64,000 nucleotides of DNA from a virus, in IMG/VR virus record IMGVR_UViG_3300045988_181536, positions 32,001-96,000 of that record. One strand, written 5' to 3'. Numbering within the stretch: position 1 is the first letter of the stretch; every line of letters starts with the position of its first letter. The notes under the pieces were generated by a model. It was not told the origin of the DNA. It searched no databases and worked only from the letters and a program-made list of their open reading frames with translations. Both the position numbers and the translations under genes were made by a program. Below are positions 5,199 through 61,433 of the stretch, in pieces.

Positions 5199-6647
5199 AT
5201 GGCAGACATTCTTCGTAAGCCTACTGTTACCGTAAATGGATATAAATGCGTATCCGCTCAGGTATCTTGTATGTTAAATCGCCCTATTATAGTAAATGCT
5301 ACAGTATGCTCAGGCGACACAGATGGTGGTATTCTTACTACAGATGACATAATGAATTTAGCCAAAGAGATGCAGGCTAAAATCTTTGAAGATCCATCTG
5401 AAGGAGATTTGCAACTAAGTATGTCTGATGGCGAAAGCGGTACTTTAAATTATAACAGGTTAATTATTACGTCTTGTGATGTTGTGGCGGCGACCTCTGG
5501 TGGTTTAATGGCAACTATTACAGCTACAAGTCCAGATATTTTGGCAGATTTGGTAGATCCTTCTGTTTATATGAAGTATGTGGATACAGCGAATGTTATG
5601 TTTAAAACTGCTAGCGATTATAAAGGCTCAAAAGCCCAAGATCATTTTTGGGTATATCAGTTGCAAGATAAAGGCGGAAATAATTTGTCTGTTGCCAATA
5701 AATTATTAAAACTTTTAGAAAACGCCAAAGATAAATATAGATTTAGGGAAGATGGACTGACTGAGGGAACGAAAGCTGCAGTTAATTCACAAAAGGCTAT
5801 TAACAATTCCTTTTTTAAATACGTTCGGCAATTTTTACGGGAAAGCGACGACACCACTCGTGTATTAAACGGTAAGGCAGAAATTAACGACACGGTTAAT
5901 CGGGCAATTTATAATACATTGGCGCATAACATGTTTGAAATTGGGGGTGGTGTATTCTCCAAACTATTAAATTATATTACTTCAGAATTTTTACTTTGGT
6001 ATATTCCCAACCATAAAACTGGAGAAATAGGAATTTTAAAAAATTGGGATTATGAAGGTAACGACATGCAAACCATTTCGGTTCCAATTTCCACCGCAAA
6101 ATTAGCCATAGGACGAGCTTTAGGCAATGATTTGCCTCCAACTTTAGTTGTTGCAGAATCTCCATTGGTATTTACACAACATGAAATTGCGGAAAACTAT
6201 TCCGCATGGATTTCAGGTAGTTATCCGGAAAAAGCGGAAACTAAACTAGGTAAAGTATATAATATTCAAGCGCCACGTTGGTTTTCGGTTGGCCAAGATG
6301 TAAGTCCGAATAAACCTGCAAATAAATTAAATGTCGGAAGAAATCCCAGTCAAACAATTGAAACGGCGGATAAGGCACAAAAACAAATAAGTAAAAATGC
6401 TAAATCAAGCAATCAAGCTTTAACTTATTTAGCCAAACAATCATTTTTTAAATATAAATTTGGTACTTCTGTTGCCGGTATAACTTGCCCATTTCAATCA
6501 AATATTGACGCAAATATCGGCGATTTTGTTCAGGTTAATGCTGAAGGTGGGGGTAAAATCTTACAAGGCATTTTGTCTACTGTAACCCATAACCTTTCTA
6601 CAGGATCTCTTAGCACAGAGTTAGGTTTTACTCGCGTAGAGATTTAG
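5199..6647 (+). CDS. hypothetical virion protein
   Basis: 482-aa ORF with a 2-nt gap from the previous gene. Confidence 0.45.
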   Translation: MADILRKPTVTVNGYKCVSAQVSCMLNRPIIVNATVCSGDTDGGILTTDDIMNLAKEMQAKIFEDPSEGDLQLSMSDGESGTLNYNRLIITSCDVVAATSGGLMATITATSPDILADLVDPSVYMKYVDTANVMFKTASDYKGSKAQDHFWVYQLQDKGGNNLSVANKLLKLLENAKDKYRFREDGLTEGTKAAVNSQKAINNSFFKYVRQFLRESDDTTRVLNGKAEINDTVNRAIYNTLAHNMFEIGGGVFSKLLNYITSEFLLWYIPNHKTGEIGILKNWDYEGNDMQTISVPISTAKLAIGRALGNDLPPTLVVAESPLVFTQHEIAENYSAWISGSYPEKAETKLGKVYNIQAPRWFSVGQDVSPNKPANKLNVGRNPSQTIETADKAQKQISKNAKSSNQALTYLAKQSFFKYKFGTSVAGITCPFQSNIDANIGDFVQVNAEGGGKILQGILSTVTHNLSTGSLSTELGFTRVEI

Positions 6648-6703
6648 TATTGACATTATCTGTAGGCTGGGTTTGGCTGAATGCTGTTTAATCATTAAAG
6701 TAA

Positions 6704-31624: not shown

Positions 31625-32353
31625 ATGAACAATTGGAAAAAATATATTATAGAGTTTATTGCAGTAGTTATGGTTATTATAACTACTGGTTTTATCTCCT
31701 TGCATGTTAGAGAGTGGATAGCAAAATCTAAAACAAATACATCTCGGCTATTCAATTCTAAAAAATTCCTTGAGGAGCTGCCTCTTCATTATGACAATAA
31801 GCTACCCGCTGAGACAATTATATGCGACGATGAAATCTCGTTAACTCGCAGGGACAAACGAGCTATTTTGTTTGATGCTTTGTCGGATTATGTTGCAGCC
31901 AAAACATCTTATATGTTGTCCAACTGGCACAGCGATAATAAGACCATTGTCGTTAACTCTAGCCTTAAAGAAATTGCTGTGGAGCTGATGCGCAAAGATG
32001 TCATCGGCGATATGCCTAGCGTTTCTAAAGCGTTGGAGGATTCCGGCAATATGGCTTCTAAATTAATTGAAGAACAGAAGCAACTGCAACTGCAGAACAA
32101 AAACTATGTTACCGCAGAGGATATAATTATGTATTCGGAGTATTACAAAGAGCTATCTGAAAAATGTAAGTTGTTTGAAAATGCCGGATATAAGAAAGCC
32201 TTTTTAGCGGACGCTATAGGATATGGAATGCTAAAAGGTATAAGAACTGTAGCTGATAACATTGTTTGTTCAGAGGGATCAAAAATTGCCGTTAGAGTTT
32301 ATGACGCTACTGCATATTTAAATGAACAAATGCTAAAGTACTTGAATTTCTAA
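31625..32353 (+). CDS. membrane-anchored protein (N-terminal TM)
   Basis: N-terminal hydrophobic helix YIIEFIAVVMVIITTGFISL. Confidence 0.4.
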   Translation: MNNWKKYIIEFIAVVMVIITTGFISLHVREWIAKSKTNTSRLFNSKKFLEELPLHYDNKLPAETIICDDEISLTRRDKRAILFDALSDYVAAKTSYMLSNWHSDNKTIVVNSSLKEIAVELMRKDVIGDMPSVSKALEDSGNMASKLIEEQKQLQLQNKNYVTAEDIIMYSEYYKELSEKCKLFENAGYKKAFLADAIGYGMLKGIRTVADNIVCSEGSKIAVRVYDATAYLNEQMLKYLNF

Positions 32354-38796: not shown

Positions 38797-40136
38797 ACTA
38801 GTGAGCTTGATTTATATGTTTAAATCAATTTTAGACACTTCATTGCTTATGCTTGTTAAATCCTTAGTAGGCTTATCAAGTCTTATTTCAGCTCCATGTC
38901 TGTAATCATCCGTTGCAGATGATAGGATTGTTAATCCTCTTGTTAAAATATTTTTAGCAGCATTAACATCTCTGTCTAAAACTGTTCCGCATTGGGGACA
39001 TACCCAAAATCTATCTTTTAAAGTTAGGCTTTGATTAATATATCCGCAATTATGACAAGTTTTTGACGAAGGGTAAAAATGGTCTATTTTAATTATCTTC
39101 TTACCTTTCCATGCTGCTTTATATTCTAATTTTTGTATCATGCTATTCCAAGAGACATCTGCAATAGCATAAGCCAATTTATGATTTTGCATCATATTTT
39201 TAACAGCTAATGTCTCTAAACAAATTACATCATATTTGTTTAACAACAAGGTACTTAGTTTATGTTGCATATCTTCACGAGAATTGGTTATCTTTTCATG
39301 AAGTTTTGCTATTTTAATTCTAAGTTTTTCTTTTCTATTAGAACCTTTTTGTTTTTTGGAAAAGTGTTTTTGAAGCTTGGATAGTTTTGATTGATATTTC
39401 TTTTGAAATTTTAAGTTGGGATATCGTTTACCATCAGATGTTATAGCAAAATCTTTAATTCCCAAATCTATGCCCACTGCTTTTGTTAAATCTGCAGCAT
39501 CAGGAATACATACGTTTTGTTCTGTTAAAATAGAAACATAATATTTGCCTGACGGTTTTTTAGAAATTGTCGCACTACAAATTTTACCTTTTAAAGGTCT
39601 ATGATTAACAAACTTTATACCGTTCTTAAATTTGGGAATATATATTTTATCATTTTTAATAGCTACATTCTGTGGAACATTAAAAGAATTGTTTCCGTCT
39701 TTACGTTTAAACTTGGGAAATTTAGACTTTTTACTAAAGAATTTTCCAAAAGCCGTTTCTAAATTTTTTAATGATTGTTGAAGGCTTTGGGAATTAACAT
39801 CTTTTAACCACACATATTCCTTTTGCTTTTTAAGTGTAGTTAGAGCTTGTGAGCAATTATTGTAATTTAAAGTCTTTTTATTTTTAAGGTAAAATTCCTG
39901 TTTCTCTTTAAGAAAGTAATTATATACAAATCGGCAATGCCCAAAATGCAATGATAATAGTTCTTTGTCTTCAGGTGAGGGGTAAAGCCTATATTTATAG
40001 GATTTGTATATTGTTTTATTCATTATTTAAGTTAAACTAAAAACTACTTAGAATCAAATAGCAACAAAAAAAAATAAGAATCTATAATAACTTAAACAAA
40101 ACCCCACCATTCATCTTACCAGACAAGCTGGTAAGT
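38776..40136 (-). mobile_element. IS200/IS605-family insertion element carrying tnpB only (IS1341-like)
   Basis: TnpB ORF flanked by subterminal hairpins: ctcaccagatgaactagtgag (38783-38803) at the 3' end and cttaccagacaagctggtaag (40115-40135) at the 5' end. No tnpA. Flanking sequence on both sides encodes pieces of one deaminase-like gene. Confidence 0.6.
38812..40023 (-). CDS. tnpB: TnpB (OrfB) RNA-guided endonuclease / IS605-family transposase accessory protein
   Basis: N-terminal OrfB_IS605 HTH (YKYRLYPSPEDKELLSLHFGHCRFVYNY), RuvC-like core, C-terminal zinc ribbon CHNCGYINQSLTLKDRFWVCPQCGTVLDRDVNAAKNI. Confidence 0.8.
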   Translation of the reverse strand: MNKTIYKSYKYRLYPSPEDKELLSLHFGHCRFVYNYFLKEKQEFYLKNKKTLNYNNCSQALTTLKKQKEYVWLKDVNSQSLQQSLKNLETAFGKFFSKKSKFPKFKRKDGNNSFNVPQNVAIKNDKIYIPKFKNGIKFVNHRPLKGKICSATISKKPSGKYYVSILTEQNVCIPDAADLTKAVGIDLGIKDFAITSDGKRYPNLKFQKKYQSKLSKLQKHFSKKQKGSNRKEKLRIKIAKLHEKITNSREDMQHKLSTLLLNKYDVICLETLAVKNMMQNHKLAYAIADVSWNSMIQKLEYKAAWKGKKIIKIDHFYPSSKTCHNCGYINQSLTLKDRFWVCPQCGTVLDRDVNAAKNILTRGLTILSSATDDYRHGAEIRLDKPTKDLTSISNEVSKIDLNI

Positions 40137-44731: not shown

Positions 44732-45043
44732 ATGAATAAACTACCAGCAGAAGACATAACCTATTTGGCGTGCATCTGGGAAAAACTACACGCCGACAGG
44801 GATATAGTCTTATCTCAAAGATACGTGGAAATAACGGTATTGCGAGTATTTAAAGCAAGCAACGGGCAGTGCTATTACAAAATCGAAATTAGGAATCCCA
44901 AAGGTTTCACGGAACATTGGGTGCCTGAAGAAATTTTTTCTAAATACACGCTGACCAATGAAAACCAATTTAAGAAAATTGAAATCATTGATGAGCTGCC
45001 CTCGCCTAAACCGAAGCAACGGTTGTATTTCGATTCCGAATAA
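44732..45043 (+). CDS. hypothetical protein
   Basis: 103 aa. Converges on the terminase gene. Confidence 0.4.
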   Translation: MNKLPAEDITYLACIWEKLHADRDIVLSQRYVEITVLRVFKASNGQCYYKIEIRNPKGFTEHWVPEEIFSKYTLTNENQFKKIEIIDELPSPKPKQRLYFDSE

Positions 45044-46931
45044 TATTTCGCATATCCCTGCCGTATTTGAAATAGTTTCGGAAAAGCTCCATGCCTACTT
45101 CGTCTTCAAATAAAGACTCACCTAATATAAGCTTTGCCAGTATAGTGGCATAGTTTACCGCATGTAACATGTCATCTGTTTTGGTTCCTGGTTTTGTATA
45201 TAAAAATCCCGTTACACCTTGCTGAGTTTCCCAGGGTACACGAGTTAAAACCAAGAAATCTTTTAAATATTCCATCGAATGTTCCCACCTAGGTGCACGT
45301 ATACGGCTGTTTTTTATGTCCATAAATAAGGTCGTAATGCTGTCAGTGCGGTGCAAGGAATACAAATTAAACATTTCGGACTTTTTCGGTATGGAGAGAA
45401 ATGTGCCTGTAGGTTTATATTTGAACATTATAACCTTTAAAGGATCCATAAGTTTTTTAATTTCATTTGCGTATACAGCGCCTCCACCATAGTCATTTGC
45501 TAAAGCATAACCTCCGAATTTATGATGATCATTAGCAATGCAATGGGTTATGTCATCATAATCCATGCCTGCATATTTCTTCATGTGAATAATATCAAAT
45601 TTTTTATCCGGAGTAACACCAATAATACAGTGTGCAGTATATGAAGCTTTGGAGCGTGATGCAGGATTATAATCAGATCCACCCCAGTCACAGCCGGAAA
45701 CTTTAAAAATATATTTAGGAGGTACGGCAGAAATTGCTTGTTTTTGCACGTCGTGTATGTCGCCTAAAATGCATATATTCTGCAAATCTCTGGTTGTTAA
45801 TTCTTTGGTTCCGGATTCCGTGGCTTCGCCCAGATACTCTTCCAAGAAAGATTTTTTATCTGAAGATTGGGAAGCTTTATAGATATCCAAATATATGGAT
45901 TGTTTTTCAGTATTTGCAGGAACGATAATCTGCGGAATATGGAATCCCCATAGTCCATACTTTAACATTTCCGGCGCTTCGAAATCCCAACAACCATCAC
46001 GGACATTTAAGACACGTCCGCATTTTAAACAACATAATCCCTTGGGTTGAATCATATCTAAAACATTATGATTTAAGTCGGGATAATTGTCAAAGTGGCA
46101 AGCAGGACATGTCATGCGCCAAAGCCCCCTCGAAGATTCTAACCAACGTTGTTCTAAGGGAGTATCAACTGATTTAGATGTGCCGCCATATACTACTGAT
46201 CTAAATTCGGAACGAGACTGGGTGGACTTAATAACACGCTCTAATGTATCATCAAAATCTTGATATTCGTCAAAATTTATCCAATCGAAAGTAGGTGAAC
46301 GCATTTTCGACGCATCGGAAAGAACATAATACATTCTATGCAAAGACATACGCGCTTTGCCGTGATCGTATTCTTTATAATAAAGATTTGTTTTAAACTT
46401 TGGATTGCGTTTATTGGGTTGAAATCTATAAGCCTGCTCAATTTCTTTGGATTTATATCCCAATGTTCTTAACTGATCCATTCGGGGCACAATCGTCGCA
46501 ATTCTTAAACCGGGAATAATACGACAATATAAATCGGCAGCCAACAGCATATTAGTGGTATTATGGCTTAAAATACCATTAGTAAAATAAGTATGAGAAG
46601 TGTCATTTTTTAATGTCACGTCATACATGGGAACTGCAGGACTATTTTGTTTATCTACAGAGATGATCTTGGAAATACCCTCTTTCGTTATCACCGATTC
46701 ATCCAGAGAATCCTTAGCATGAATCATTTGTCCATCCTTGGAAATAATCCCGTGTGTATCTGCGCAATTTAATGTCTTGTTGTTGGCCGTCTTAATTTGC
46801 CAGACATCAAAAGGTATCGTTTTATGAATAATATCAATATCTTCCCAGCCGTTCGACGTTTCTATCTGCCAATCTTCAATGGCATAACTTTCGGTAAATT
46901 TGGGATTTAAGGATTCAACTTTCTTGGACAT
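45006..46931 (-). CDS. terL: terminase large subunit, C-terminal portion (post-P-loop ATPase plus nuclease) preceded by an intein C-terminal (Hint) fragment
   Basis: ATG at 46931; the track start at 47045 is TTG followed by hydrophobic junk. Intein block B NCADTHGIISKDGQMIHAKDSL, block F/G MYDVTLKNDTSHTYFTNGILSHN|T. The extein starts exactly where T4 gp17 resumes after GK of SRQLGKTT (TNMLLAADLYCRII ~ TVVAIFLAHFVCF). Walker B WINFDEYQDF. Motif III YGGTSKS. Nuclease motifs VSGCDWGGSDY...HCIIGV and TKTDDMLHAVNYA. Confidence 0.7.
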   Translation of the reverse strand: MSKKVESLNPKFTESYAIEDWQIETSNGWEDIDIIHKTIPFDVWQIKTANNKTLNCADTHGIISKDGQMIHAKDSLDESVITKEGISKIISVDKQNSPAVPMYDVTLKNDTSHTYFTNGILSHNTTNMLLAADLYCRIIPGLRIATIVPRMDQLRTLGYKSKEIEQAYRFQPNKRNPKFKTNLYYKEYDHGKARMSLHRMYYVLSDASKMRSPTFDWINFDEYQDFDDTLERVIKSTQSRSEFRSVVYGGTSKSVDTPLEQRWLESSRGLWRMTCPACHFDNYPDLNHNVLDMIQPKGLCCLKCGRVLNVRDGCWDFEAPEMLKYGLWGFHIPQIIVPANTEKQSIYLDIYKASQSSDKKSFLEEYLGEATESGTKELTTRDLQNICILGDIHDVQKQAISAVPPKYIFKVSGCDWGGSDYNPASRSKASYTAHCIIGVTPDKKFDIIHMKKYAGMDYDDITHCIANDHHKFGGYALANDYGGGAVYANEIKKLMDPLKVIMFKYKPTGTFLSIPKKSEMFNLYSLHRTDSITTLFMDIKNSRIRAPRWEHSMEYLKDFLVLTRVPWETQQGVTGFLYTKPGTKTDDMLHAVNYATILAKLILGESLFEDEVGMELFRNYFKYGRDMRNIIRNRNTTVASV

Positions 46932-47004
46932 TTGTGAGTAATACAATATTAAGACTATATTATACGCAAGAAAAATTTCAAACTTAAAAATAGAAAGGAA
47001 AATT

Positions 47005-47787
47005 ATGCCAAATTGGGCGAATACAAATATAATCTTTTTCAGCAACGATGAAAAACAATTACAAGAATTATATAGCGTGATTTTTTATCGTGCGCCTAAT
47101 GCTTATGTGGAGGATATAAAACCGCTTTTAAATTCTAATTCTATAGGGAGCGGGTGGCTTGGTGCAATTCTTTACGAGTTAAAAGAAATTACTTTAGAAC
47201 AAATCGATAAGGACAATATTCCCGCAGATTTGCATTGCAGGGGTTGGGTGGAATTTGGTATTGACAGTGAACTTGTTCCAGAAAGAATCCCTAATCCTTA
47301 TTTGCAAAAGGATAAGCCAAGTTGGAGATTTGAAATTTTTACATATGATGCTTGGGAACCCAACATGAAAATGTGGGATTATATTATCAAAAAGCATTTT
47401 CCTGATGTGAAATTTGTTTATCGTAGCGAAGAAGGCGGTAATGGATTTTATGTAAATTCTGACTACCTACGTTTCTATTTTGACGAAGAATATATAGTTG
47501 ATTTAACCATCGATTTCGATAATTGTTCAGAATCAATCAAGAATATTTTTAAACCCGATGGTTCAACAGGAACCTGTGATTATTGTGAATATTTTGAATA
47601 TTATAATTTTCACGATTTTTGCAATTTCTTGAAGAGAAATTTTCGAGATGTTGGAGAAATCACAACCAAAGAAGATGCAGAGAAAGAAATCAAAAGAATA
47701 ACTGATGCTTTTGCAGCAGAGGATAATTCTGATTCTTGGTGCTACATTAACACATTTGACACTCCTGAAATTAGGTATGGACTCTGA
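47005..47787 (+). CDS. MPNW-start hypothetical protein (paralog 1)
   Basis: 260 aa. Preceded by the 34-bp leader ttaaaaatagaaaggaaaattatgccaaattggg, identical to the one at 48265. Confidence 0.45.
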   Translation: MPNWANTNIIFFSNDEKQLQELYSVIFYRAPNAYVEDIKPLLNSNSIGSGWLGAILYELKEITLEQIDKDNIPADLHCRGWVEFGIDSELVPERIPNPYLQKDKPSWRFEIFTYDAWEPNMKMWDYIIKKHFPDVKFVYRSEEGGNGFYVNSDYLRFYFDEEYIVDLTIDFDNCSESIKNIFKPDGSTGTCDYCEYFEYYNFHDFCNFLKRNFRDVGEITTKEDAEKEIKRITDAFAAEDNSDSWCYINTFDTPEIRYGL

Positions 47788-52163: not shown

Positions 52164-52394
52164 TTGAAATCAGTGAAACTAAGTCAACAGAAACTACTCC
52201 ATTATATGCAGGAAAAGCCTAAGAGGGACTTTTTTACTGACAAAATTATTGAAATTGTAGAGCCAAAAAATGCAGAAGATTTCATTATAGTAGGACAACT
52301 TCTGAAGTGTATTAAAACAACTCGTTATAGCGTTGGTTCCGGAAAGATTGAGGCAATCACAAACGACAAAATCAAAAGAAAGGATAAACAATGA
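52164..52394 (+). CDS. hypothetical small protein
   Basis: 76 aa. Confidence 0.3.
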   Translation: MKSVKLSQQKLLHYMQEKPKRDFFTDKIIEIVEPKNAEDFIIVGQLLKCIKTTRYSVGSGKIEAITNDKIKRKDKQ

Positions 52395-53080
52395 AAGAAA
52401 AAAGAATAGATTCCCACAAGCTAGACAAAATTTTACATCAGCATAGCCTTTGGTTGTCAGAGAAAGGCCGAAGAGGTAAACGTGCTTATTTGGCTCATTC
52501 AGATCTTAGTGGGTTGGATTTAAGCGGTGCTAATTTACAATACGCACATTTATACGGTGCAAATCTAAATGATACAAATCTTAGTAAAGCATTTCTTGAT
52601 AAAGCGGATCTAACTTTTGCAAACTTAAAGAAGGCCTTTCTTTATCATACTAATTTATCATGGTCCAATCTCCAAGGTGCAAACCTTGAAGATGCGACAT
52701 TAAGTGACGCAATTCTTTATGCTGCAAATTTGTGTGACGCGAAACTTCAGTGCGCAGACTTAAGAGACGCAGATCTTCGTTTTGCAAATTTAAACCACGC
52801 GAACCTATATCATGCACAGCTGGAAGATGCTCTTCTTAAAGGTGCAGACCTGAGTGAGGCTAAGACTGATGATAGAATACTTTGTCTTGATCGAATTGGT
52901 TCCTCCAAGCGGCGAACAACTTACAACATCACAAAAGATATTGTATGGTGTGGTTGCTTTACGGGAACCTTTAAAGAATGGATATCACGAATCCGTGAAA
53001 CTTATCCTGATAAGAATAGTATTTGTAGAAAGGAATACGAAGCAGCGATAGCTTATTTTAGAGCTATCGCGAAAGACTAA
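52391..53080 (+). CDS. pentapeptide-repeat protein (Qnr/MfpA-like fold)
   Basis: About 25 consecutive A(D/N)LxX pentapeptides (DLSGLDLSGANLQYAHLYGANLNDTNLSKAFLDKADLTFANLKKAFLYHTNLSWSNLQGANLEDATLSDAILYAANL...). C-terminal ~70-aa non-repeat domain. Confidence 0.8.
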   Translation: MKEKRIDSHKLDKILHQHSLWLSEKGRRGKRAYLAHSDLSGLDLSGANLQYAHLYGANLNDTNLSKAFLDKADLTFANLKKAFLYHTNLSWSNLQGANLEDATLSDAILYAANLCDAKLQCADLRDADLRFANLNHANLYHAQLEDALLKGADLSEAKTDDRILCLDRIGSSKRRTTYNITKDIVWCGCFTGTFKEWISRIRETYPDKNSICRKEYEAAIAYFRAIAKD

Positions 53081-53107
53081 CCAGCCAACTTCCAACTTTG
53101 TATAATT

Positions 53108-53656
53108 ATGAAAATACAAATTCGACAAAATATTTTTGAGACTAACAGTTCATCTTCCCATTCTATCACAATAACTGAAAAGAATGGGGAATTTTCTGAA
53201 CAATTTAAATCACGGTTTTTGTATGAATGGAATCCCGGTGTTATTCCCCACAGAACAGATTATTGTAAAGGTGCGGATAGGTTAGATTATTTTAAATACA
53301 AACCGAAAAGTTATTATTGCGAATCCAATGAAACGTATCACTTATATGGTGGTCAATTTGGCTTGGATTGGTTTTGTTGCGACACGTTTGACGCAAAAGT
53401 TGAATACCTATACACTTGGATGCATTCGGTATCTACAACATTCTATAAAGATAACCTATTTGACTGTATAGCAAAACATTATAACATTTCTGTGGAAAAT
53501 ATTGAAGAGGAAACAATCGATCCCAATTCAATATGGGTAGATCATGCTAGTGCTACCTGGGATTTACTGAAGGGCTACTACAGTGGGGATGATCGTATTT
53601 CTTATATTCTTGAAAATCCAAATGTGTTAATATTAGGAGGCAACGATGATGGGTAA
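53108..53656 (+). CDS. hypothetical protein
   Basis: 182 aa. Confidence 0.4.
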   Translation: MKIQIRQNIFETNSSSSHSITITEKNGEFSEQFKSRFLYEWNPGVIPHRTDYCKGADRLDYFKYKPKSYYCESNETYHLYGGQFGLDWFCCDTFDAKVEYLYTWMHSVSTTFYKDNLFDCIAKHYNISVENIEEETIDPNSIWVDHASATWDLLKGYYSGDDRISYILENPNVLILGGNDDG

Positions 53657-53709
53657 AAAGCTTAAACAAATAATCAAGAACACTTTAACAATATTCTTAA
53701 AACCGCCTT

Positions 53710-54156
53710 GTGAAGAAGAAAGGACTAACAATGAGAAATAGCATAGATGTTTCGCAATTAGAACATCTTCGAGACGGAATATATCGCGCATTTGAAGGAG
53801 AGATATACGGCTATCCCGTTTGCATTATCACCACAAAAAGTCTACCTGAATTTGATATGGGAGACTACTATTGTGGCTATGTAGGAGTCCCGCCTTCTCA
53901 TCCACTGTATCAAATAGGCTATATGGATAATATTATGGCGCAAGTAGATAACGATGCTGAAGTTAATGGCGGGCTTACATATAGCAGAATGGCAGACAGT
54001 TGGAGGACTACGAAAGACGAGTTTAAAGACTATTGGTTCTTCGGCTTCGATTGTGCACATTATTGGAACGAGGAGCATCCCTGCTCTTTTGAAGATGTTA
54101 AAGCCGATTGCGAAGGTTTGGCTTTGGCTTTAAAGAATTATAGAAAAGACCAATAA
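53710..54156 (+). CDS. hypothetical protein
   Basis: 148 aa. Confidence 0.4.
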   Translation: MKKKGLTMRNSIDVSQLEHLRDGIYRAFEGEIYGYPVCIITTKSLPEFDMGDYYCGYVGVPPSHPLYQIGYMDNIMAQVDNDAEVNGGLTYSRMADSWRTTKDEFKDYWFFGFDCAHYWNEEHPCSFEDVKADCEGLALALKNYRKDQ

Positions 54157-54209
54157 AGTTGCACTTTTTAGTTAAAAATTATAATAAAAAATTATAAAAA
54201 GGAATAACA

Positions 54210-54677
54210 ATGGAAGAAATCGGAGAAAATAAAATTAGGGTAACGGTGGATGTAGACGTTGATAAAATACGTTCCGATTTGATAAGAAATCTATCTGAAC
54301 AGTGGAATGAGGAAACACCAGAGTCAGAAGAAGAGATATATAATCGTGCAATAAAAAGTGCTAAATACTTCATCGATACAGAAGTCAAGAAAGCCATAGT
54401 TGAGGAGGCGAAGAAACAATTTTTTGAGAATCCAGAACTAAAAGAGTATCTTGCTACTTCCATAAAAAACAGGATAAAAGAAACCTTCTTTACGGAGTTT
54501 CTTACAGGATTGATGCCCTATCAACTGGAGAAGATGATAGAAAAGGGGTATCATAATCGCATTGGTGAGATATCACCAATAAATATTGTTTTTAGCGAAG
54601 AGGAGAGTGGAGGAGTTTTCAATGGAGCTTCTCGACCGCACGATGAAAGAGAACAAGGACGTTTTGGAACGGCTTAA
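54210..54677 (+). CDS. acidic coiled-coil protein
   Basis: 155 aa. The 3' end overlaps a shifted-frame copy of the MELL...VLERLK module. Confidence 0.4.
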   Translation: MEEIGENKIRVTVDVDVDKIRSDLIRNLSEQWNEETPESEEEIYNRAIKSAKYFIDTEVKKAIVEEAKKQFFENPELKEYLATSIKNRIKETFFTEFLTGLMPYQLEKMIEKGYHNRIGEISPINIVFSEEESGGVFNGASRPHDEREQGRFGTA

Positions 54678-54705
54678 ACAGGCAGAAAGCGAGAAAGAAT
54701 AGCCA

Positions 54706-55017
54706 ATGAAAACAAAACGCTGCCCATTCTGTGGAAGTAATGGTATATATACCAAACATTTGCCTATTGGTCTATATTGCGTAGCTTGTACAAAATGCGG
54801 AGCATCTTCAGGACCATTCCTTAACGAGGATGACGCAGAAGAAGCTTGGAACAAAAGGCAAGAGCAATTTAGTCTTAGCGATATGGAACTCCTAAGAGAT
54901 ATCGTTGAAGCTGAGTTAAAATCTGTTAAACGAGACAGTGAATATAGATGTTCATTACTAAGATTGTCTATTAAATGCATGGATGTTTTAAACGATTTAA
55001 ATGAAGGAGAATACTAA
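54706..55017 (+). CDS. Lar-family restriction alleviation protein
   Basis: KRCPFCGSNGIYTKHLPIGLYCVACTKCGASSGPF...DAEEAWNKRQE matches the Lar family pattern CPFCG...Y...C..CGA...EA..RWNKR (cf. E. coli Rac Lar KPCPFCG...YRAKCNGCESRTGYGGSEKEALERWNKR). Confidence 0.7.
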   Translation: MKTKRCPFCGSNGIYTKHLPIGLYCVACTKCGASSGPFLNEDDAEEAWNKRQEQFSLSDMELLRDIVEAELKSVKRDSEYRCSLLRLSIKCMDVLNDLNEGEY

Positions 55018-55408
55018 AATGAGCGTATACATATATAAAACCCAAAATAATCAAAAAGATGAGATAGTCCTCGAAGAACATGAAGAAATTATTGACTTCA
55101 TAGATTCGTGGTTTAGAAACCAAGTGTGCGCGGTAAGTGACCGTGACGCAGAACAAGTAAAAAACCATTTATTCTCTTCGAAGCTTTTGGACAAGCTAGA
55201 AAACGATTGCTGGGATGCTATGGGACAAAAGGAGTACGCAATAGTCATCTGGAATACACCTGCTTGGTTTATCCAAAATGAAGAGGATCTCTGCGGTTAC
55301 TATAACACTATGCTAAGAATAATCTTTGCTATAAAAAAATTGAGAAAAGCATATGGGAGTGACTGGGAGCACGCAAAGTTTATATTCGAAAGCGACGTTA
55401 CGAAATGA
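55001..55408 (+). CDS. hypothetical protein
   Basis: 135 aa. Confidence 0.4.
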   Translation: MKENTKMSVYIYKTQNNQKDEIVLEEHEEIIDFIDSWFRNQVCAVSDRDAEQVKNHLFSSKLLDKLENDCWDAMGQKEYAIVIWNTPAWFIQNEEDLCGYYNTMLRIIFAIKKLRKAYGSDWEHAKFIFESDVTK

Positions 55409-55953
55409 AACCCATACTAGATGTCTGTTGTGGCGGACGCATGTGGTGGTTTGATAAAAACGATGAACGTGCGGTGTTTATGGATAAGCGCACCTACGAG
55501 GGAACGTTATGTGATGGCAGACACTTTGAGGTAAAGCCAGATATCTTGGGAGATTTTACAAATATTCCATTTCCAGATGAAAGTTTTCACCTTGTAGTAT
55601 TTGACCCGCCACACTTGGAAAAGCTTGGAGAAACATCCTGGCTTTGTATTAAATATGGTAAGCTTCCAAGCGATTGGAAGGACAAACTAACAAAGGCATT
55701 TGAGGAATGCTTTCGGGTGCTAAAGCCTTTTGGAACATTAGTGTTTAAGTGGAACGAAGAGCAAATAAAGCTCAGTGAAATCTTAAAGCTTACTACAGCA
55801 AAACCTGTAGTTTTGCCTAAAAGATTTGAAAACCGTTATATCGTGGAAATCGATGGGGGCAATGGTTGGGCGTGTTTTATGTGTGCCCGTCCGATTGGGC
55901 GTCGGATAGAACCGCAAATCGACGGAGATATATATACTTGGGAGGAGAAATAA
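55405..55953 (+). CDS. small amino-methyltransferase (DPPH motif) fused to the paralog-family C-terminal module
   Basis: Motif I-like LDVCCGGRMWWF. Motif IV FHLVVFDPPHL, the (D/N)PP(Y/F/H) signature of N6-adenine / N4-cytosine / m2G methyltransferases. The last ~50 aa (GNGWACFMCARPIGRRIEPQIDGDIYTWEEK) are homologous to the C-termini of genes 55956, 61891, 62463 and 63117. Confidence 0.55.
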   Translation: MKPILDVCCGGRMWWFDKNDERAVFMDKRTYEGTLCDGRHFEVKPDILGDFTNIPFPDESFHLVVFDPPHLEKLGETSWLCIKYGKLPSDWKDKLTKAFEECFRVLKPFGTLVFKWNEEQIKLSEILKLTTAKPVVLPKRFENRYIVEIDGGNGWACFMCARPIGRRIEPQIDGDIYTWEEK

Positions 55954-55955
55954 AT

Positions 55956-56453
55956 ATGAATAAAAAACTAAAAATCCAATTCTGGAAAGCCGAGAAAGCT
56001 TTAGCAATGCAAATACTGGAACAGGAGGGTTTGCCGAAACGTAAAAACGAGGGAAACGTCCGCGTTTGGGACTACATTGCGCTCTTCAAAGAAGCTATAG
56101 TTTTAGGCGGAATAAATGAGTTCGATTTACATATTCCACACATTATATTCGACACCAACGCCGAGCGCGATGCCTATTTGGATAAAGTCATCAACGCAAT
56201 CACCGAGGAACTTTTCTCGGGCGAAGGCGAACTTAAAGTCGGGGAGATGTGCGAGGTTAGTGATGATGGTGTATCTTGGCACAAATATAGACTCTTAGCT
56301 ATATTGCCCGACCGTTATGAAATGAGATTCATTATAGAGAATGGAACACTGAGTTGGTGCACTTGCACATACGCTCGCCCTATTGTCAAGCGCATTGAGC
56401 CTACGCTCGATAAGCGTGGGAATGTCTTCACTTATACCTGGGAGGAAAAATAA
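55956..56453 (+). CDS. MQILEQEG/YTWEEK paralog family member 1
   Basis: Start at the GGAGGAGaaataaatATG site. KALAMQILEQEG...LLAILPDRYEMRF...CTYARPIVKRIEPTLDKRGNVFTYTWEEK. Confidence 0.5.
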   Translation: MNKKLKIQFWKAEKALAMQILEQEGLPKRKNEGNVRVWDYIALFKEAIVLGGINEFDLHIPHIIFDTNAERDAYLDKVINAITEELFSGEGELKVGEMCEVSDDGVSWHKYRLLAILPDRYEMRFIIENGTLSWCTCTYARPIVKRIEPTLDKRGNVFTYTWEEK

Positions 56454-56551
56454 GAAACTCCATAGCGGGTGTCGTAAGGTTACGGATAATCCTAATAATC
56501 AACAAAACAAAAATGCTTGAACTTTAAATTAAGATTTGCTGGCATTGAAAT

Positions 56552-57043
56552 ATGTCAACAAATCTTATGCCTAAAACAACTACTTTGCCTGCCGCGACTT
56601 CTGATTCAAACGGGGGATTTTTTGATATTGAAAAGTTGATTCGTACTGACGCTTTTTTCTTTGATAAGGTGGAAAAAGCCGTAAAGCATTTGATGAAAAT
56701 GCACGAGCAGCTAAAAGCTAACTATAGCGACCAAAATTTAAAATTATATAGGGAAGCTTTCTTTGACTATTTAAAGTTAACTCATTTTAGCATATCACCG
56801 CTATTGGGATATTATTATCCTAAGTATCCTTTAGGAACACCCCTGTCTTTAAAAGACTTTCCGTTTGCACATATATTTTATAATTTAAATATAGGTCCAT
56901 CATGTTCTACAGTATTTAGAGGAAGCCGACAGATTTCCAAATGCTGCACAGGGGATACCATATGCAGATTTAAAAATAAAAAAACAGGACAAGTAGTTAC
57001 TATGTCGCTGGAAGATTTCTTTAAAGAACAAAAAACAATTTAA
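56552..57043 (+). CDS. hypothetical protein
   Basis: 163 aa. Confidence 0.4.
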   Translation: MSTNLMPKTTTLPAATSDSNGGFFDIEKLIRTDAFFFDKVEKAVKHLMKMHEQLKANYSDQNLKLYREAFFDYLKLTHFSISPLLGYYYPKYPLGTPLSLKDFPFAHIFYNLNIGPSCSTVFRGSRQISKCCTGDTICRFKNKKTGQVVTMSLEDFFKEQKTI

Positions 57044-57053
57044 AAATTTCACA

Positions 57054-59246
57054 ATGCGAACTTTATTTCTTTTGAGAGGAGCCCCAGGAAGCGGCAAATC
57101 CACTTGGGTGAACCGCAATAACTTGGAACCTTATACTTTATGCGCTGATCAAATTCGCACGCTTATTCAATGTCCCGTGCTAAATCTCAACGGAACATTT
57201 TCCATATCGCAGAAAAATGACAAAGAAGTGTGGGAGTATTTGTTTCATTTATTGGAAACTCGAATGGCTCGTGGCGAAATGTTAATAATTGACGCCACGC
57301 ATTATAAGAAAGAATTGCTTAATAAGTATAAAAAACTTGTTAAAAATTATCGTTATAGAGTTTACGTGGTTGATTTTGTTTCAGGCATATCCATGGAAGA
57401 ATGCATGCGTAGAAATCAAAATCGCACGGGTTACAAGATTGTGCCTGACCATGTAATCCAAAAAATGTATTCGGTGTTTAATTCCGAATCTAAGCAAATT
57501 AGAAATGCTTTTACGACTATTTCTCCGGAAGATGCTGTTAAGCTTATCCAAAATACAAATGACCAAGTAAAAGATTTTAATTCTTGGGAAAAAATTTATA
57601 TTTTTGGGGACATCCATGGCTGTTTTGAACCAATAAAAAGTTTTTTTGAAAAATATCCTTATGATGAAAAAGCCTTTTATATCTTTTTAGGCGACTACTT
57701 AGATAGGGGTTTGCAAAATAAGGAAGTATTGGAATGGGCTATAGAATTTGCCGAACATCCAAATTGTTTATTTTTGGAAGGAAACCATGAGAGATGGTTA
57801 AAGCTTTACGCCTCTAAAGATTCCGAGGATCAAAACTTAATAGCTTCTCGTGTGTTCTTAAAAAATACCATACCTCAAATTAAGGATATTGATCCCGTTA
57901 AAATTCGATCTTTTTGCTACAAACTTGCGCAAATGGCACTATTTTCTTATGGTAAACATACGACATGGTTTTGTTGTCATGGAGGGATGCCTGTATTGCC
58001 AAGTCTGCCAATTGCGGCCATAGAAATGATTCATGGTACGGGCAAATATGAAGACATAGATGAAGTGCATAAAGAATTTGAGCGTAGATACGGCAACTTA
58101 AATATCTATCAAGTTCATGGGCATAGAAATGTATACAAAGATGTCTTTAACGCTGACAAAAGTGTTTTTAATTTAAATTCTGCAGTCGAATACGGAGAAG
58201 ATTTGCGTATTTTAAAACTTGCGTTGCAAGAGGACGGATCGGTTACCAAAGAGCTTATAGAAGAACCAAATCCAGTGCATCTCACAGAATCAAACAAGGT
58301 GCGCAGGTTGTATGATAATGAAATAAACAACGACATTATTAAACAACTCTGTGATAATCCGAGTATTATTAAAATTCAATTGGATGACGGAATTATATCT
58401 TATAAATATGATTCAAAATTGTTTTTCTCAAAACAATGGACAGATCTAAATGTTATCGCCAGGGGATTTTTCTGTCGTAAAGATAAAATCATTTGTCGCA
58501 GTTATAATAAATTCTTTAATTATCAGGAACGGATAGAAACATCCCCAAAAGAACTTTGCAAAACATTGCAATTTCCTGTGAGCAAATTTCAGAAAGAAAA
58601 CGGATTCTTGGGATTGGTAAGTTGGGATGCCGAAATGGATAAGGCGTTTATTGCATCTAAATCAACCAATCAAGGCGAATACGCTCAAATGGTTCGTGAT
58701 CGATTTTATGCTTATGACTCATGGAATGAAATGTTAAATTACGCCAAAGAACATAACGTTACATTAATTTTTGAAGTCATAGAGCCGGAAAAAGATCCGC
58801 ATATTATCGAGTATGCACAACCGCATTTAGTGCTGCTGGATATTGTCGAAAACACAATGGAAGGAAAATTGCTTGAATATGATAAACTTAAAGAACTTGC
58901 CAATTCTTGGAACATCCCTTGTAAAATCTTGGAGCATGTTTACAATAACTGGGAAGAGCTTTGGGAAGATCTAAAGCAATTAGAGCATGAAAAAGATTTA
59001 AAGATCGAAGGCTTTGTTTTTCGAGACATCAATAATTATCAGTTTAAGTTTAAAACAAACTATTATAAACGTTGGAAATCGTTTCGCAGCTTAAAAGACA
59101 AATATGCGCGTTCAAAAGATCAAATGAGACAAGTATTTGTTGATAAAGAAGAAACGGATTTTTTCCTTTGGTTGAATACCCAACCTAAAGAATATGTCAG
59201 CAAAACTGATATTATTACTTTGAGACAAAAATTCTTATCTAATTAG
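57054..59246 (+). CDS. Pnkp-like trifunctional polynucleotide kinase / 2',3'-phosphatase (metallophosphoesterase) / RNA ligase-like adenylyltransferase
   Basis: N-terminal P-loop LLRGAPGSGKST. Central calcineurin-like motifs IYIFGDIHGC, FLGDYLDRG, LEGNHE, CHGGMP, VHGHRN. C-terminal nucleotidyltransferase motif I KENGFLG (KxNG) with downstream EGFVFRD and KFKTNYYKRWK motifs. Hairpin terminator after the stop. Confidence 0.7.
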   Translation: MRTLFLLRGAPGSGKSTWVNRNNLEPYTLCADQIRTLIQCPVLNLNGTFSISQKNDKEVWEYLFHLLETRMARGEMLIIDATHYKKELLNKYKKLVKNYRYRVYVVDFVSGISMEECMRRNQNRTGYKIVPDHVIQKMYSVFNSESKQIRNAFTTISPEDAVKLIQNTNDQVKDFNSWEKIYIFGDIHGCFEPIKSFFEKYPYDEKAFYIFLGDYLDRGLQNKEVLEWAIEFAEHPNCLFLEGNHERWLKLYASKDSEDQNLIASRVFLKNTIPQIKDIDPVKIRSFCYKLAQMALFSYGKHTTWFCCHGGMPVLPSLPIAAIEMIHGTGKYEDIDEVHKEFERRYGNLNIYQVHGHRNVYKDVFNADKSVFNLNSAVEYGEDLRILKLALQEDGSVTKELIEEPNPVHLTESNKVRRLYDNEINNDIIKQLCDNPSIIKIQLDDGIISYKYDSKLFFSKQWTDLNVIARGFFCRKDKIICRSYNKFFNYQERIETSPKELCKTLQFPVSKFQKENGFLGLVSWDAEMDKAFIASKSTNQGEYAQMVRDRFYAYDSWNEMLNYAKEHNVTLIFEVIEPEKDPHIIEYAQPHLVLLDIVENTMEGKLLEYDKLKELANSWNIPCKILEHVYNNWEELWEDLKQLEHEKDLKIEGFVFRDINNYQFKFKTNYYKRWKSFRSLKDKYARSKDQMRQVFVDKEETDFFLWLNTQPKEYVSKTDIITLRQKFLSN

Positions 59247-59256
59247 AAAACTTTAA

Positions 59257-59293
59257 CTATGCTCGCTTTTACATTTAAAGCGAGCATAGTTTT
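59257..59293 (+). terminator. rho-independent terminator
   Basis: aactatgctcgctttacatttaaagcgagcatagtt followed by tttc. 15-bp stem. Confidence 0.6.
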
Positions 59294-59322
59294 TCAATCC
59301 CCTATTATCAAAGGCATAAATA

Positions 59323-59640
59323 ATGTATACAATTCCAACACTGATAATTCTTAGCATAATTTATTTTGTTTATATTCACAAACAAAAATCCAAAGGTGTA
59401 ATTTCATACTACGAAGCTGACCACAAAGAGATAACTTGTGTACTCGTTTGCACGATGATTTTCTTCATAATGGTGATAGGAAGATTAGCGTACATTAGAT
59501 TTCATAGTGTTTATCACCCATGTGAGGGATGCAGATTTCAATCATTTGTCAACATTTATTATAATGCAGACGGTAAACGTATAGAAGAAAAAGACATTGT
59601 ATTTAAAAAATGCGTAAATTTGCCATTTTATAAATTTTAA
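59323..59640 (+). CDS. small membrane protein
   Basis: Two hydrophobic helices (IPTLIILSIIYFVYI; VLVCTMIFFIMVIGRLAYI). Confidence 0.4.
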   Translation: MYTIPTLIILSIIYFVYIHKQKSKGVISYYEADHKEITCVLVCTMIFFIMVIGRLAYIRFHSVYHPCEGCRFQSFVNIYYNADGKRIEEKDIVFKKCVNLPFYKF

Positions 59641-59652
59641 AAAATTTTATCC

Positions 59653-60024
59653 ATGACACGAACATCAAAATTAGCGGAAACAAAACAAAAACTTAAAGAA
59701 GCATTAGAAGGCTATATCAAAGCTAAAGAGCAAGTTGCTAAAGCTTCACAATTTAATTTTTCCCAAGAAGAACGATTTGAACAGATCCGAAACTTTAAAT
59801 CAAAATTTCGATGTCAATCCACATTTAAGTCAAACAGCCAAGAATTGGAAGATTATAGAGACGAATTTTCCAGCCTATCTGCATTATTTGCTGTGAGATT
59901 TGTTCGAGAGAAATCCTCGGAAGATGTGCAAGTTGAATTATATATGGAAGATGACGGACTTTACTCAAAAATTGCAGATTTTAATGTATGTTGGCTCCCA
60001 GATTTAATTAAATGCCTAAGCTAA
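59653..60024 (+). CDS. hypothetical protein
   Basis: 123 aa. Confidence 0.4.
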   Translation: MTRTSKLAETKQKLKEALEGYIKAKEQVAKASQFNFSQEERFEQIRNFKSKFRCQSTFKSNSQELEDYRDEFSSLSALFAVRFVREKSSEDVQVELYMEDDGLYSKIADFNVCWLPDLIKCLS

Positions 60025-60055
60025 GCGAAAAAATTTTTAAAGGAGAGATACAAAA

Positions 60056-60415
60056 ATGCCATTCTATGTTTTTCTAAATGATGCACTTACATTAATTTTA
60101 GTGCCTTATATTAAGGCATTACTTGGGATAAATTCTGAAGATGACCTCAACATAGAAATCGATACGGAACCTACACATCCTTATTACAGTGTTATAACGG
60201 TTAAAACATCAATTATGCCTGAAAATATACAAGAAATAAGATATATAGGTCGGATAACAGGAGCGATTGTAGAAAAAGAAACTAATAATGTTTTCGTATA
60301 TACTGGTTTTGATTTAAAGAAAGATGTTTCAGAAATAAACTATTGTTTCAAATTAAACAATATGCCAAATATTCGCGGTAATCCATTAACCATAAAATTT
60401 TTAAAAGATGAATAA
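60056..60415 (+). CDS. hypothetical protein
   Basis: 119 aa. SD aaaggagagatacaaaaATG. Confidence 0.4.
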   Translation: MPFYVFLNDALTLILVPYIKALLGINSEDDLNIEIDTEPTHPYYSVITVKTSIMPENIQEIRYIGRITGAIVEKETNNVFVYTGFDLKKDVSEINYCFKLNNMPNIRGNPLTIKFLKDE

Positions 60416-60644
60416 TAAAATAGATTGGAGATATATTAGAACACAACTCGCCAATAGCCTTAGTAACGAAAAAATTTGGAGCTTGGCGTGCGCAATTTCT
60501 TCCGAACCGAATGTACACGCAGAAAATTGCCAAAAATTAGAGCAAGCAATTGCCGACATAGATAGTGGTAGTTACGAGGATTTTGTACAAAAATTTCCGG
60601 AATATTTAGGGCTTGACCCTGCGACTGTGGTGAGTCATAGTTAA
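60408..60644 (+). CDS. hypothetical small protein
   Basis: 78 aa. Confidence 0.35.
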   Translation: MNNKIDWRYIRTQLANSLSNEKIWSLACAISSEPNVHAENCQKLEQAIADIDSGSYEDFVQKFPEYLGLDPATVVSHS

Positions 60645-60821
60645 ATTTCAAAATGGCTACCAGAAAACAAAACATGTCCAGCACGTATTTTTTGGAAAAC
60701 GCAAAAGTTATTTCCAAGGAAACTAATCCAAATATCTACTCCCGTGCCAGGCTAAGAGATATCTATCGCAAATACGATACTGCTAAATATCGTAGAGGTA
60801 GCCCTACAATTAAAGCAAAAG

Positions 60822-61433
60822 ATGCCTGAAGAACAGAAAGTTACTGTTAAATCCAAAGATTTAATTTTGGATATCCATTTGAATTTAAAAACTGCCAATA
60901 ATAAAAAGGTAGTTGCTGTGGAGCATAATATTCCGCTTACGGCAATATTAGAACCTATGTTTATAAAAGACGGCGCCAAAAAGATTGAGCAAATAGTAAA
61001 TATGCTAGGCGTTGAAGTTTTTAATACTATGGTTCGGGATTTCTTCCTTAATAAAGTTGAAGACATGCATAAAACGCAAAACTTTATTGAGCATAAGACA
61101 TTGATTGATACTATTCAAGATAACCAGTCTATAATTGAAATCAACAATGCTGATGGTTCTAAGGAACAAAAAGTTCTTGTAAAACCCGTGATTAGCGAAG
61201 AAACCAATCTTATTGTCGAGTTGGAAGAAACTGCAAATGAAGTACCTGATGAGTATCAATTAAATGACGGAGAAGAAAATTTGATTCCGGACATTGAAAT
61301 GACGGAACAACAGTTAACAGAAGTAAAACCGCCGGAATCAAAACCAAAACCGCCTAACGTTGTAACTAATGCGGCGTTAGGCGGAATAGTTGACAATAGT
61401 AGTAGACCATTGCCAAAAGTTCGACTTTCTTAA
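60822..61433 (+). CDS. hypothetical acidic protein
   Basis: 203 aa. Confidence 0.4.
   Translation: MPEEQKVTVKSKDLILDIHLNLKTANNKKVVAVEHNIPLTAILEPMFIKDGAKKIEQIVNMLGVEVFNTMVRDFFLNKVEDMHKTQNFIEHKTLIDTIQDNQSIIEINNADGSKEQKVLVKPVISEETNLIVELEETANEVPDEYQLNDGEENLIPDIEMTEQQLTEVKPPESKPKPPNVVTNAALGGIVDNSSRPLPKVRLS

Follow-up and report, generated by a model that had tools for sequence, protein, structure and literature searches.

A kinase-phosphoesterase-ligase gene and its family

We analyzed a gene in a 64,000-nucleotide (nt) stretch of viral DNA, positions 32,001 to 96,000 of IMG/VR record IMGVR_UViG_3300045988_181536. This whole stretch is called the window below, and coordinates given without a locus name are window positions. 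An uninterrupted open reading frame (ORF) of 730 amino acids (aa) runs from ATG to TAG at 57054..59246 on the plus strand. Its product is probably a self-contained, Hen1-independent RNA heal-and-seal enzyme, in which healing modules of the bacterial Pnkp type are fused to an ATP-dependent ligase of the fungal Trl1 (Rnl6-like) type. The gene is composed as follows:

57054..59246, plus strand: whole trifunctional gene (kinase, phosphoesterase and ligase), 730 aa; full-length match to PHROG 8238, E=1.8e-185
57054..57548, plus strand: N-terminal P-loop polynucleotide 5'-OH kinase domain, aa 1-165; Pfam AAA_33, aa 4-142, E=3.4e-18
57579..58283, plus strand: central binuclear metallophosphoesterase with a predicted role in healing 2',3'-phosphate ends, aa 176-410; Pfam Metallophos, aa 180-363, E=5e-15
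58284..58340, plus strand: flexible interdomain linker, aa 411-429; the sole low-confidence stretch of the predicted model lies here, at aa 414-420
58341..59057, plus strand: ligase adenylyltransferase domain, Rnl1/Trl1-type N-subdomain, aa 430-668; Pfam RNA_lig_T4_1, aa 469-671, E=9.9e-35
59058..59243, plus strand: Trl1-like helical C-domain of the ligase, aa 669-730; contains K675 (nt 59076-59078), R678 (nt 59085-59087) and the C-terminal IITLRQKFL

All three Pfam domains score far over their gathering thresholds, in line with the initial annotation of this DNA, which had read three activities from the one polypeptide; the motifs it named (GAPGSGKST, GDIHG, GDYLDRG, GNHE, HGG, GH and KENGFLG) could all be located in the ORF. 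RNA ligase homology, on which that annotation had made its reading of the C terminus depend, is present as well (the RNA_lig_T4_1 match, PF09511). An AlphaFold2 model of the protein has a mean predicted local distance difference test score (pLDDT) of 92.7, falling below 50 only in the linker.

Judged by its relatives, 57054..59246 is a real gene and not a chance ORF, because it matches PHROG 8238 end to end, has a 97% identical protein among more than 2,400 homologs (E≤1e-10) in a large protein database, and shares its start Met and all catalytic residues of the three active sites invariantly with 281 relatives, a set that spans at least 29 lineages and reaches down to ~36% identity. PHROG 8238, to which the window protein belongs over its full length, carries the annotation 'RNA ligase'. 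The combination in one phage gene, to which the initial annotation had drawn attention, is no rarity: by tblastn, at least 113 deposited phage genomes encode the same full-length fusion, none with more than 37% identity. Among the carriers are the Staphylococcus phage Twort and K-like phages, other Herelleviridae, SPbeta-like Bacillus phages, Fusobacterium phage Fnu1, and Brochothrix, Lactobacillus and Alicyclobacillus phages. The Twort homolog is gene TwortDSMZ_026 ('RNA ligase Rlg'), located near the left terminal repeat. Matching stretches were also found in IMG/VR (at least 483) and in GTDB species genomes (320), mostly metagenome-assembled genomes of gut Firmicutes. When the ligase module alone was searched exhaustively, 495 representatives of 50% identity clusters matched at E≤1e-30, among them fused forms of ~720-770 aa and stand-alone ligases of ~300-330 aa. 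The family is large and already catalogued under a generic name, and the window gene is one more member. In the literature we found no characterization of the family and no mention of Rnl6-type ligases in phages or bacteria; an earlier comparative-genomics census of RNA repair may list the architecture. Both the architecture and its affinity to Trl1 appear uncharacterized so far.

The kinase P-loop GAPGSGKST is found at aa 9-17 (nt 57078-57104), together with a putative general base D32, R35 (in CADQIR) and a lid arginine, R124. The phosphoesterase motifs are GDIHG (aa 185-189), GDYLDRG (aa 213-219), GNHE (aa 243-246), HGG (aa 309-311) and HGHR, which holds the GH motif (aa 355-358). Both healing modules have their nearest relative in Clostridium thermocellum Pnkp (CthPnkp), which likewise combines an N-terminal P-loop 5'-OH kinase with a central lambda-phosphatase-like binuclear metallophosphoesterase. 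TIGR04075, the NCBIfam equivalog of bacterial Pnkp, has 851 model positions, of which 10-267 align, and only with aa 4-251, a stretch that holds the kinase and enters the phosphatase; its score is 72.9 bits against a 750-bit cutoff (E=1.7e-20).

Four homologs (P0070, P0104, P0090 and P0081) carry an intein of ~330 aa right after the Glu of GNHE (E246, nt 57789-57791), as seen from a LAGLIDADG_3 match in P0070 and an intein-splicing Pfam annotation in P0104. Inteins typically sit in essential active-site motifs, and their position within GNHE thus lends independent support to the functional importance of the phosphoesterase. Lineage-specific insertions of 55-140 aa occur inside the phosphoesterase domain a little downstream of GNHE, after residue 257, in P0091, P0093, P0103 and P0108 (911-918 aa) and in P0006, P0009, P0014 and P0042 (~790 aa); in the longer forms the ligase, too, is interrupted after residue 547, by ~40 aa.

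Relation of the ligase module to fungal Trl1

A profile built from aa 425-730 of 15 family members was searched against all PDB sequences. It matched Candida glabrata Trl1-LIG with E=1.6e-25 and Chaetomium thermophilum Trl1-LIG with ~2e-18, and in both cases the alignment includes the Trl1-specific C-domain up to its final helix, in which IITLRQKFL corresponds to IIKLRN(E/D)FL. T4 Rnl1 was matched at ~1e-11 over the nucleotidyltransferase core only. The family profile is needed to see this relation, as a single-sequence phmmer search of the PDB with the ligase domain gave marginal Trl1 matches (E ~0.05). Foldseek searches with the predicted model again favored Trl1-LIG (E=2e-16) over T4 Rnl1 (~3e-12), with no Pnkp-type ligase among the best 50 matches. 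Motif I is K514-E-N516-G (nt 58593-58604), with KENGFLG spanning aa 514-520; further ligase residues are R470, K486, E574, H583 (nt 58800-58802), E652-G and K665/K667. The profile alignment equates them with CthTrl1-LIG as follows:

K514: K148, adenylylated lysine
N516: N150, motif I and 2'-phosphate pocket
E574: E218, motif III
H583: H227, 2'-phosphate pocket
E652: E300, motif IV
K665 and K667: K323 and K325, motif V
K675: R334, 2'-phosphate pocket
R678: R337, 2'-phosphate pocket

In Trl1, N150, H227, R334 and R337 bind a sulfate that mimics the terminal 2'-phosphate, and these residues were reported to occur in the Trl1 clade alone (PMC6379707). By mutagenesis, the dependence of sealing on the 2'-phosphate has been traced to the His-Arg-Arg triad and the C-domain (PMC11404444; PMC12440814). 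The counterparts N516, H583, K675 and R678 are each invariant in 281/281 relatives, as strictly as K514 and the metal ligands.

We compared the ligase to T4 Rnl1, using a sequence 100% identical to deposited rnlA. The two align by hhalign with a probability of 97.4% over 213 columns, and the residues that define the nucleotidyltransferase domain of the Rnl1 family are invariant (R470, K486, F487, K514, E574, E652, K665 and K667, equivalent to R54/K75/F76 and motifs I, III, IV and V). At the pocket positions, however, the profile comparison places an Asp in motif I of T4 Rnl1 (KEDG) and a gap at the His, with no homology past K675. Because homology ends at motif V, the phage enzyme lacks the C-terminal tRNA-specificity domain of T4 Rnl1 (aa 255-374 of the latter). 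It has instead the two hallmarks of the Rnl6 clade, a helical C-domain appended to an Rnl1-like nucleotidyltransferase domain and a 2'-phosphate pocket composed of the His-Arg-Arg triad and the motif I Asn, with the first Arg conservatively replaced by Lys. The ligase is thus a member of the Rnl1/Trl1 superfamily (PF09511), nearest to fungal Trl1-LIG by sequence profile and by fold, and its C-domain and pocket place it in the Rnl6 clade as structurally defined.

The initial annotation had assigned the protein the architecture of bacterial Pnkp, and this needs correction at the sealing end, where the ligase is not a Hen1-activated Rnl4. The profile search of the three segments that it proposed does return kinase, phosphoesterase and RNA ligase families, the last being PF09511 and not a Pnkp-type ligase module. 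From the partial TIGR04075 alignment and the Foldseek ranking of the ligase, the healing cassette is judged to be Pnkp-like and the sealing module not. One could still regard the protein as an ortholog of bacterial Pnkp that has lost its Hen1 or become separated from it, given the identical domain order, the proximity of kinase and phosphatase to CthPnkp and the TIGR04075 match itself. We consider this very improbable, since that match misses its cutoff tenfold and does not reach beyond aa 251, and since Hen1 is seen neither in the window nor among the top neighbor families listed for 160 loci, where the methyltransferases seen nearby are DNA methylases only. The initial annotation had remarked on the lack of a Hen1-like partner, and indeed neither Hen1 nor another RNA-repair family was detected among the 64 other window ORFs, nor when the ORFs at 52.4-57.0 kb and 59.3 kb were scanned by themselves. 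Since the ligase is not of the type that Hen1 activates, no Hen1 is to be expected, and its absence poses no puzzle. In comparison with bacterial Pnkp, the phage enzyme is shorter (730 versus ~870 aa), carries a Trl1/Rnl6-like ligase in place of Rnl4, and works with neither a Hen1 partner nor a 2'-O-methylation step.

Fungal Trl1 is the best sequence-profile and structural match over the whole ligase module, helical C-domain included, and the two share the KxNG motif I with its Asn, a His nine residues past the motif III Glu, and a basic-x-x-Arg sequence after motif V. Both are trifunctional heal-and-seal enzymes, but their modules are arranged in reverse order, LIG-KIN-CPD in Trl1 and KIN-phosphoesterase-LIG in the phage enzyme. 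The Trl1 kinase is GTP-specific and has a G-loop, and 3' healing is performed by a 2H cyclic phosphodiesterase in Trl1 and by a metallophosphoesterase in the phage enzyme; the Pfam families tRNA_lig_kinase and tRNA_lig_CPD find no match in the 730-aa protein. Arg334 is a Lys in the phage enzyme, the C-domain comprises ~60 aa and 4 helices as opposed to ~80 aa and 5 helices, and the phage family is viral and bacterial whereas Trl1 is eukaryal. T4 repairs tRNAs cut by PrrC with two proteins, Pnkp and Rnl1. The phage enzyme is a single chain, its phosphatase is a metallophosphoesterase and not a DxDxT acylphosphatase as in T4, and it holds the Asn/His/Lys/Arg pocket that T4 Rnl1 lacks. By its sequence, the enzyme is best described as an evolutionary chimera of a Pnkp-type healing cassette and a Trl1-type ligase, which would work like T4 Pnkp plus Rnl1 and like Trl1 while being a member of neither, nor of the Pnkp/Hen1 family. 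Kinase, phosphatase and ligase also share one viral polypeptide in baculovirus AcNPV Pnk/Rnl, which has an N-terminal ligase and a T4-type DxDxT phosphatase. The Pnkp1-Rnl-Hen1 complex unites the three activities as well (PMC4411300); unlike the phage enzyme, it pairs a healer resembling T4 Pnkp with a Pnkp-type ligase and Hen1.

Neighboring genes and the sealed 3' end

We clustered 3,091 ORFs located within 8 kb of the gene at 160 loci, representing 29 lineages at 60% identity. No neighbor cluster occurs in more than 5/29 lineages. We thus rejected an obligate two-gene system with a conserved partner and regard the enzyme as essentially self-contained. An HD phosphohydrolase accompanies it in 5 lineages and the RNA-repair nucleotidyltransferase RlaP in 4, many DNA methylases are found nearby, and a Thg1-like 3'-5' polymerase is directly adjacent in 3 lineages and also beside homolog P0118. 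At 43 loci from 3 lineages, mostly ~130-kb IMG/VR phages, a gene for a MazF/PemK endoribonuclease toxin lies 1-3.7 kb upstream of the enzyme (for example L149 17927-18427). MazF cuts leave 2',3'-cyclic phosphate ends together with 5'-OH ends, which this enzyme should repair. In one bacterial lineage (Phascolarctobacterium-type contigs L125, L143, L163 and L166), 4/4 members contain a tight operon that, in L163 914-6986, reads WYL-domain protein, WCX-domain protein, Tpt1/KptA, Thg1-like protein and trifunctional enzyme, with a UvrA-like ABC ATPase coming next. Its Tpt1/KptA is recognized by PF01885 (E=2.5e-43), with a gap to the enzyme of 33 nt in L125. The operon looks like a chromosomal, regulated and complete tRNA repair cassette.

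Among the side observations at these loci, the P0118 locus (L003 8494-13468 / L004 5483-10457) continues from the Thg1-like gene into cas5d, csd1 (cas8c) and cas7, an apparent phage-borne type I-C Cas module; for other contigs with P0118, lengths of up to 421 kb are recorded. Several carriers have a stand-alone metallophosphoesterase a few kb away from the enzyme (L007 7733-8440, the Twort 'Stp'; L002 452-1312; L005 1486-2361; L001 8165-9304), which may serve as a second end-processing enzyme or may be a protein phosphatase with no relation to it.

The enzyme has three intact active sites, each of which, by sequence and by comparison of the predicted model, is nearest to a characterized RNA end-healing or sealing homolog, and RNA heal-and-seal, as the initial annotation had proposed, is the most sensible function. 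Functions are assigned here by homology, the literature searched holds no biochemistry of the family, and structural comparisons refer to the predicted model. Alternatively, the protein might have no part in repairing damaged RNA. It could process and ligate DNA ends, act as a protein Ser/Thr phosphatase whose other domains moonlight, assist virion assembly as T4 gp63/Rnl1 does in tail-fibre attachment, or process RNAs of the phage itself. Database names of relatives such as 'serine/threonine protein phosphatase' and 'RNA ligase and tail fiber protein attachment catalyst' speak for this, as does the ability of CthPnk-type kinases to phosphorylate DNA 5'-OH ends (PMC1920235), and RNA is a predicted substrate. 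Such a function is nevertheless improbable, given that a single chain keeps all three active sites under strict conservation, that every domain has its nearest characterized relatives among RNA repair and splicing enzymes, that the RNA-repair genes Thg1-like, RlaP and Tpt1 recur as neighbors, and that the window gene sits in an accessory, anti-restriction-like block outside the structural module.

The enzyme would act after a metal-independent ribonuclease has cut an RNA, most plausibly in a tRNA anticodon loop, to leave one end with a 2',3'-cyclic phosphate and another with a 5'-OH. The kinase (P-loop K15, general base D32) would phosphorylate the 5'-OH, and the Mn-type phosphoesterase would open the cyclic phosphate, by analogy with CthPnkp first to a 3'-OH,2'-phosphate end. 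ATP would then adenylylate K514, AMP would pass to the 5'-phosphate, and attack by the 3'-OH would seal the break. Along a 2'-phosphate route, the phosphate left at the junction would later be removed by a Tpt1/KptA of the host or the operon, or by the enzyme's own monoesterase. During infection, such an enzyme may restore tRNAs and other RNAs cut by host abortive-infection or toxin ribonucleases. From this context, and from the tRNA genes that the initial annotation had noted in the same DNA (tRNA-Gln, -Pro and -Met, at 33.7-44.5 kb), we infer that counter-defense against PrrC/RloC-type nucleases is a reasonable role.

Which 3' end is sealed depends on how the pocket is read. By analogy with Trl1, we tentatively propose that N516, H583, K675 and R678 engage a terminal 2'-phosphate and that sealing is of the yeast type. 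An argument for this route comes from the absolute conservation of the Trl1 pocket and C-domain together with the one Tpt1 operon. Several observations weigh against the 2'-phosphate step. Wild-type CthPnkp opens the 2',3'-cyclic phosphate to a 2'-phosphomonoester and then removes it; its H189D variant is a pure cyclic phosphodiesterase that feeds yeast ligase, whereas the wild-type enzyme feeds T4 Rnl1 and not yeast ligase (PMC1920235). The counterpart of H189, which supports the monoesterase in CthPnkp and thus the T4-type route (PMC1920235), is His188, and its retention in 280/281 relatives is an argument for complete dephosphorylation. The first basic pocket residue is Lys and not Arg. Plant Trl1 requires the 2'-phosphate although it lacks both arginines, and CtTrl1-LIG prefers a 2'-phosphate with no absolute requirement for it (PMC12440814), so the His-Arg-Arg triad is an imperfect predictor of 2'-phosphate dependence. 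Tpt1 is adjacent in only 1/29 lineages. KptA occurs in 98 deposited phage records, none of them from phages of Staphylococcus, Lactobacillus, Fusobacterium or Brochothrix, the groups in which most deposited members of the enzyme family are found; the genera of KptA-bearing and enzyme-bearing deposited phages do not overlap, except possibly for Bacillus (3 versus 5 records). The fused enzyme is present in 0/80 KptA-bearing viral loci in IMG/VR, for which reason we rejected a general coupling of enzyme and Tpt1 in phages.

Three of these points, namely the retained His188, the lack of KptA in most phages with the enzyme, and the non-strict preference of CtTrl1-LIG, favor a T4-type clean junction, in which the phosphate is fully removed to a 2'-OH,3'-OH end, the ligase seals 3'-OH to 5'-phosphate, and no Tpt1 is needed. 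The His-Lys-Arg pocket would then bind another RNA phosphate or position the 3' nucleotide. A 2'-phosphate in the anticodon loop would, moreover, impair the tRNA (PMC6097658). On the other hand, the pocket residues vary no more than the catalytic lysine does, T4 Rnl1 handles diol ends without them, the entire C-domain, which is essential for 2'-phosphate-dependent sealing in Trl1, is conserved, and Tpt1 shares an operon with the enzyme in one lineage. On balance, we view a clean junction as somewhat less likely than the 2'-phosphate route.

Returning to yeast-type sealing, a gene cluster comparable to the L163-type operon (Tpt1, Thg1-like protein, enzyme) exists in Runella slithyformis, where a candidate cluster of Tpt1, MTase-HIT, ligase and HD-Pnk links Tpt1 to a kinase-phosphoesterase and an ATP-dependent ligase (PMC6097658). 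The Runella ligase self-adenylylates but fails to seal ordinary 3'-OH/5'-phosphate ends, which prompted the hypothesis of an uncharacterized bacterial pathway that makes 2'-phosphate junctions (PMC6097658). Operon and cluster are analogous, and differ in that the Runella healing enzyme is a separate polypeptide with an HD phosphoesterase. The family described here may represent a prokaryotic 'yeast-type' RNA ligase, in which the phosphoesterase stops at or hands over a 3'-OH,2'-phosphate end, the pocket seals it, and the resulting 2'-phosphate,3'-5' junction is the natural substrate of bacterial Tpt1/KptA. Where neither phage nor host has Tpt1, the enzyme's own monoesterase would remove the junction phosphate. 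If so, the Trl1 ligase module would have a viral or bacterial evolutionary connection.

Three paradigms of RNA healing and sealing are established, namely T4 Pnkp plus Rnl1, bacterial Pnkp/Hen1, and eukaryal Trl1 plus Tpt1. The Trl1-type joining module hints at RNA repair along a yeast-like route, of which, to our knowledge, no phage or bacterial case has been demonstrated. The family is large and biochemically untouched, it joins Pnkp-type healing and Trl1-type sealing in one chain, and it occurs in therapeutically relevant phages such as Twort and the K-like Staphylococcus phages. Should the pocket indeed read a 2'-phosphate, this would be the first prokaryotic or viral pathway to make internal RNA 2'-phosphate marks and would explain why bacteria keep Tpt1/KptA; the linkage to Tpt1 concerns a single lineage. 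The Shuman laboratory has asked whether bacteria have an unknown repair pathway that installs internal 2'-phosphates for removal by Tpt1 (PMC6097658), and the family matters here as a concrete and easily testable candidate. Should the pocket not read a 2'-phosphate, the enzyme would still be a compact single-protein RNA repair tool. Either way, we infer a probable counter-defense against tRNA-cleaving abortive-infection systems, which bears on predicting phage host range.

Surroundings of the gene in the window

The preceding ORF ends 10 nt before the gene, and no recognizable Shine-Dalgarno sequence precedes the start codon in window 57030-57056 (ttaaaaatttcacaATG), which may reflect Shine-Dalgarno-independent initiation in the host or translational coupling to the upstream ORF. 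Tpt1, Thg1, Macro, 2H, RtcB and Rnl2 proteins were sought among the window proteins and none was found. The features around the gene are:

52391-53080: pentapeptide-repeat protein, upstream of the repair gene
54706-55017: Lar restriction-alleviation protein, upstream of the repair gene
55405-55953: DNA methyltransferase of 182 aa, upstream of the repair gene; phrog_954, 1.2e-68
59255..59291, no strand assigned: perfect 15-bp hairpin, found by consensus scan and direct reading; it begins 9 nt past the stop codon and is followed by TTTT on the plus strand

The hairpin is a probable terminator that would close the transcription unit, as suggested by its match to the consensus. The region 52391-55953 looks like an anti-defense or accessory block, similar to an anti-restriction cluster. 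We considered the 182-aa methyltransferase as a possible mini-Hen1 and rejected it, because it is a DNA methyltransferase of phrog_954. This protein and the product of the overlapping ORF 55866-56453 end in a similar C-terminal module of ~30 aa ('...ARPIGRRIEPQIDGDIYTWEEK' and '...ARPIVKRIEPTLDKRGNVFTYTWEEK', respectively), which may be a shared small domain, a duplication or a recombination scar.

A megablast search with 55000-61000 found no close DNA relatives among deposited phages. The window phage is matched by IMG/VR uncultivated viral genomes (UViGs) of ~173 kb, whose homolog of the repair enzyme is 97-98% identical at the protein level; it is a divergent phage of ~173 kb, known solely from IMG/VR UViGs. 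Nine large ORFs (482-1,588 aa) on the plus strand at 2331-31513 match no PHROG at E≤1e-5; they presumably form the structural or virion module. The sole protein recognized in that scan is a large terminase subunit (45006-47045, minus strand), and the phage is highly divergent from described phages. One window ORF, probably that of 403 aa at 38812-40023 on the minus strand, matches IS605 OrfB/TnpB (HTH_OrfB_IS605, OrfB_IS605 and a Cas12f1-like TNB domain). The close relative L001 carries a similar IS605 OrfB/TnpB-type gene elsewhere (5880-6992), and this difference in position suggests a mobile insertion.

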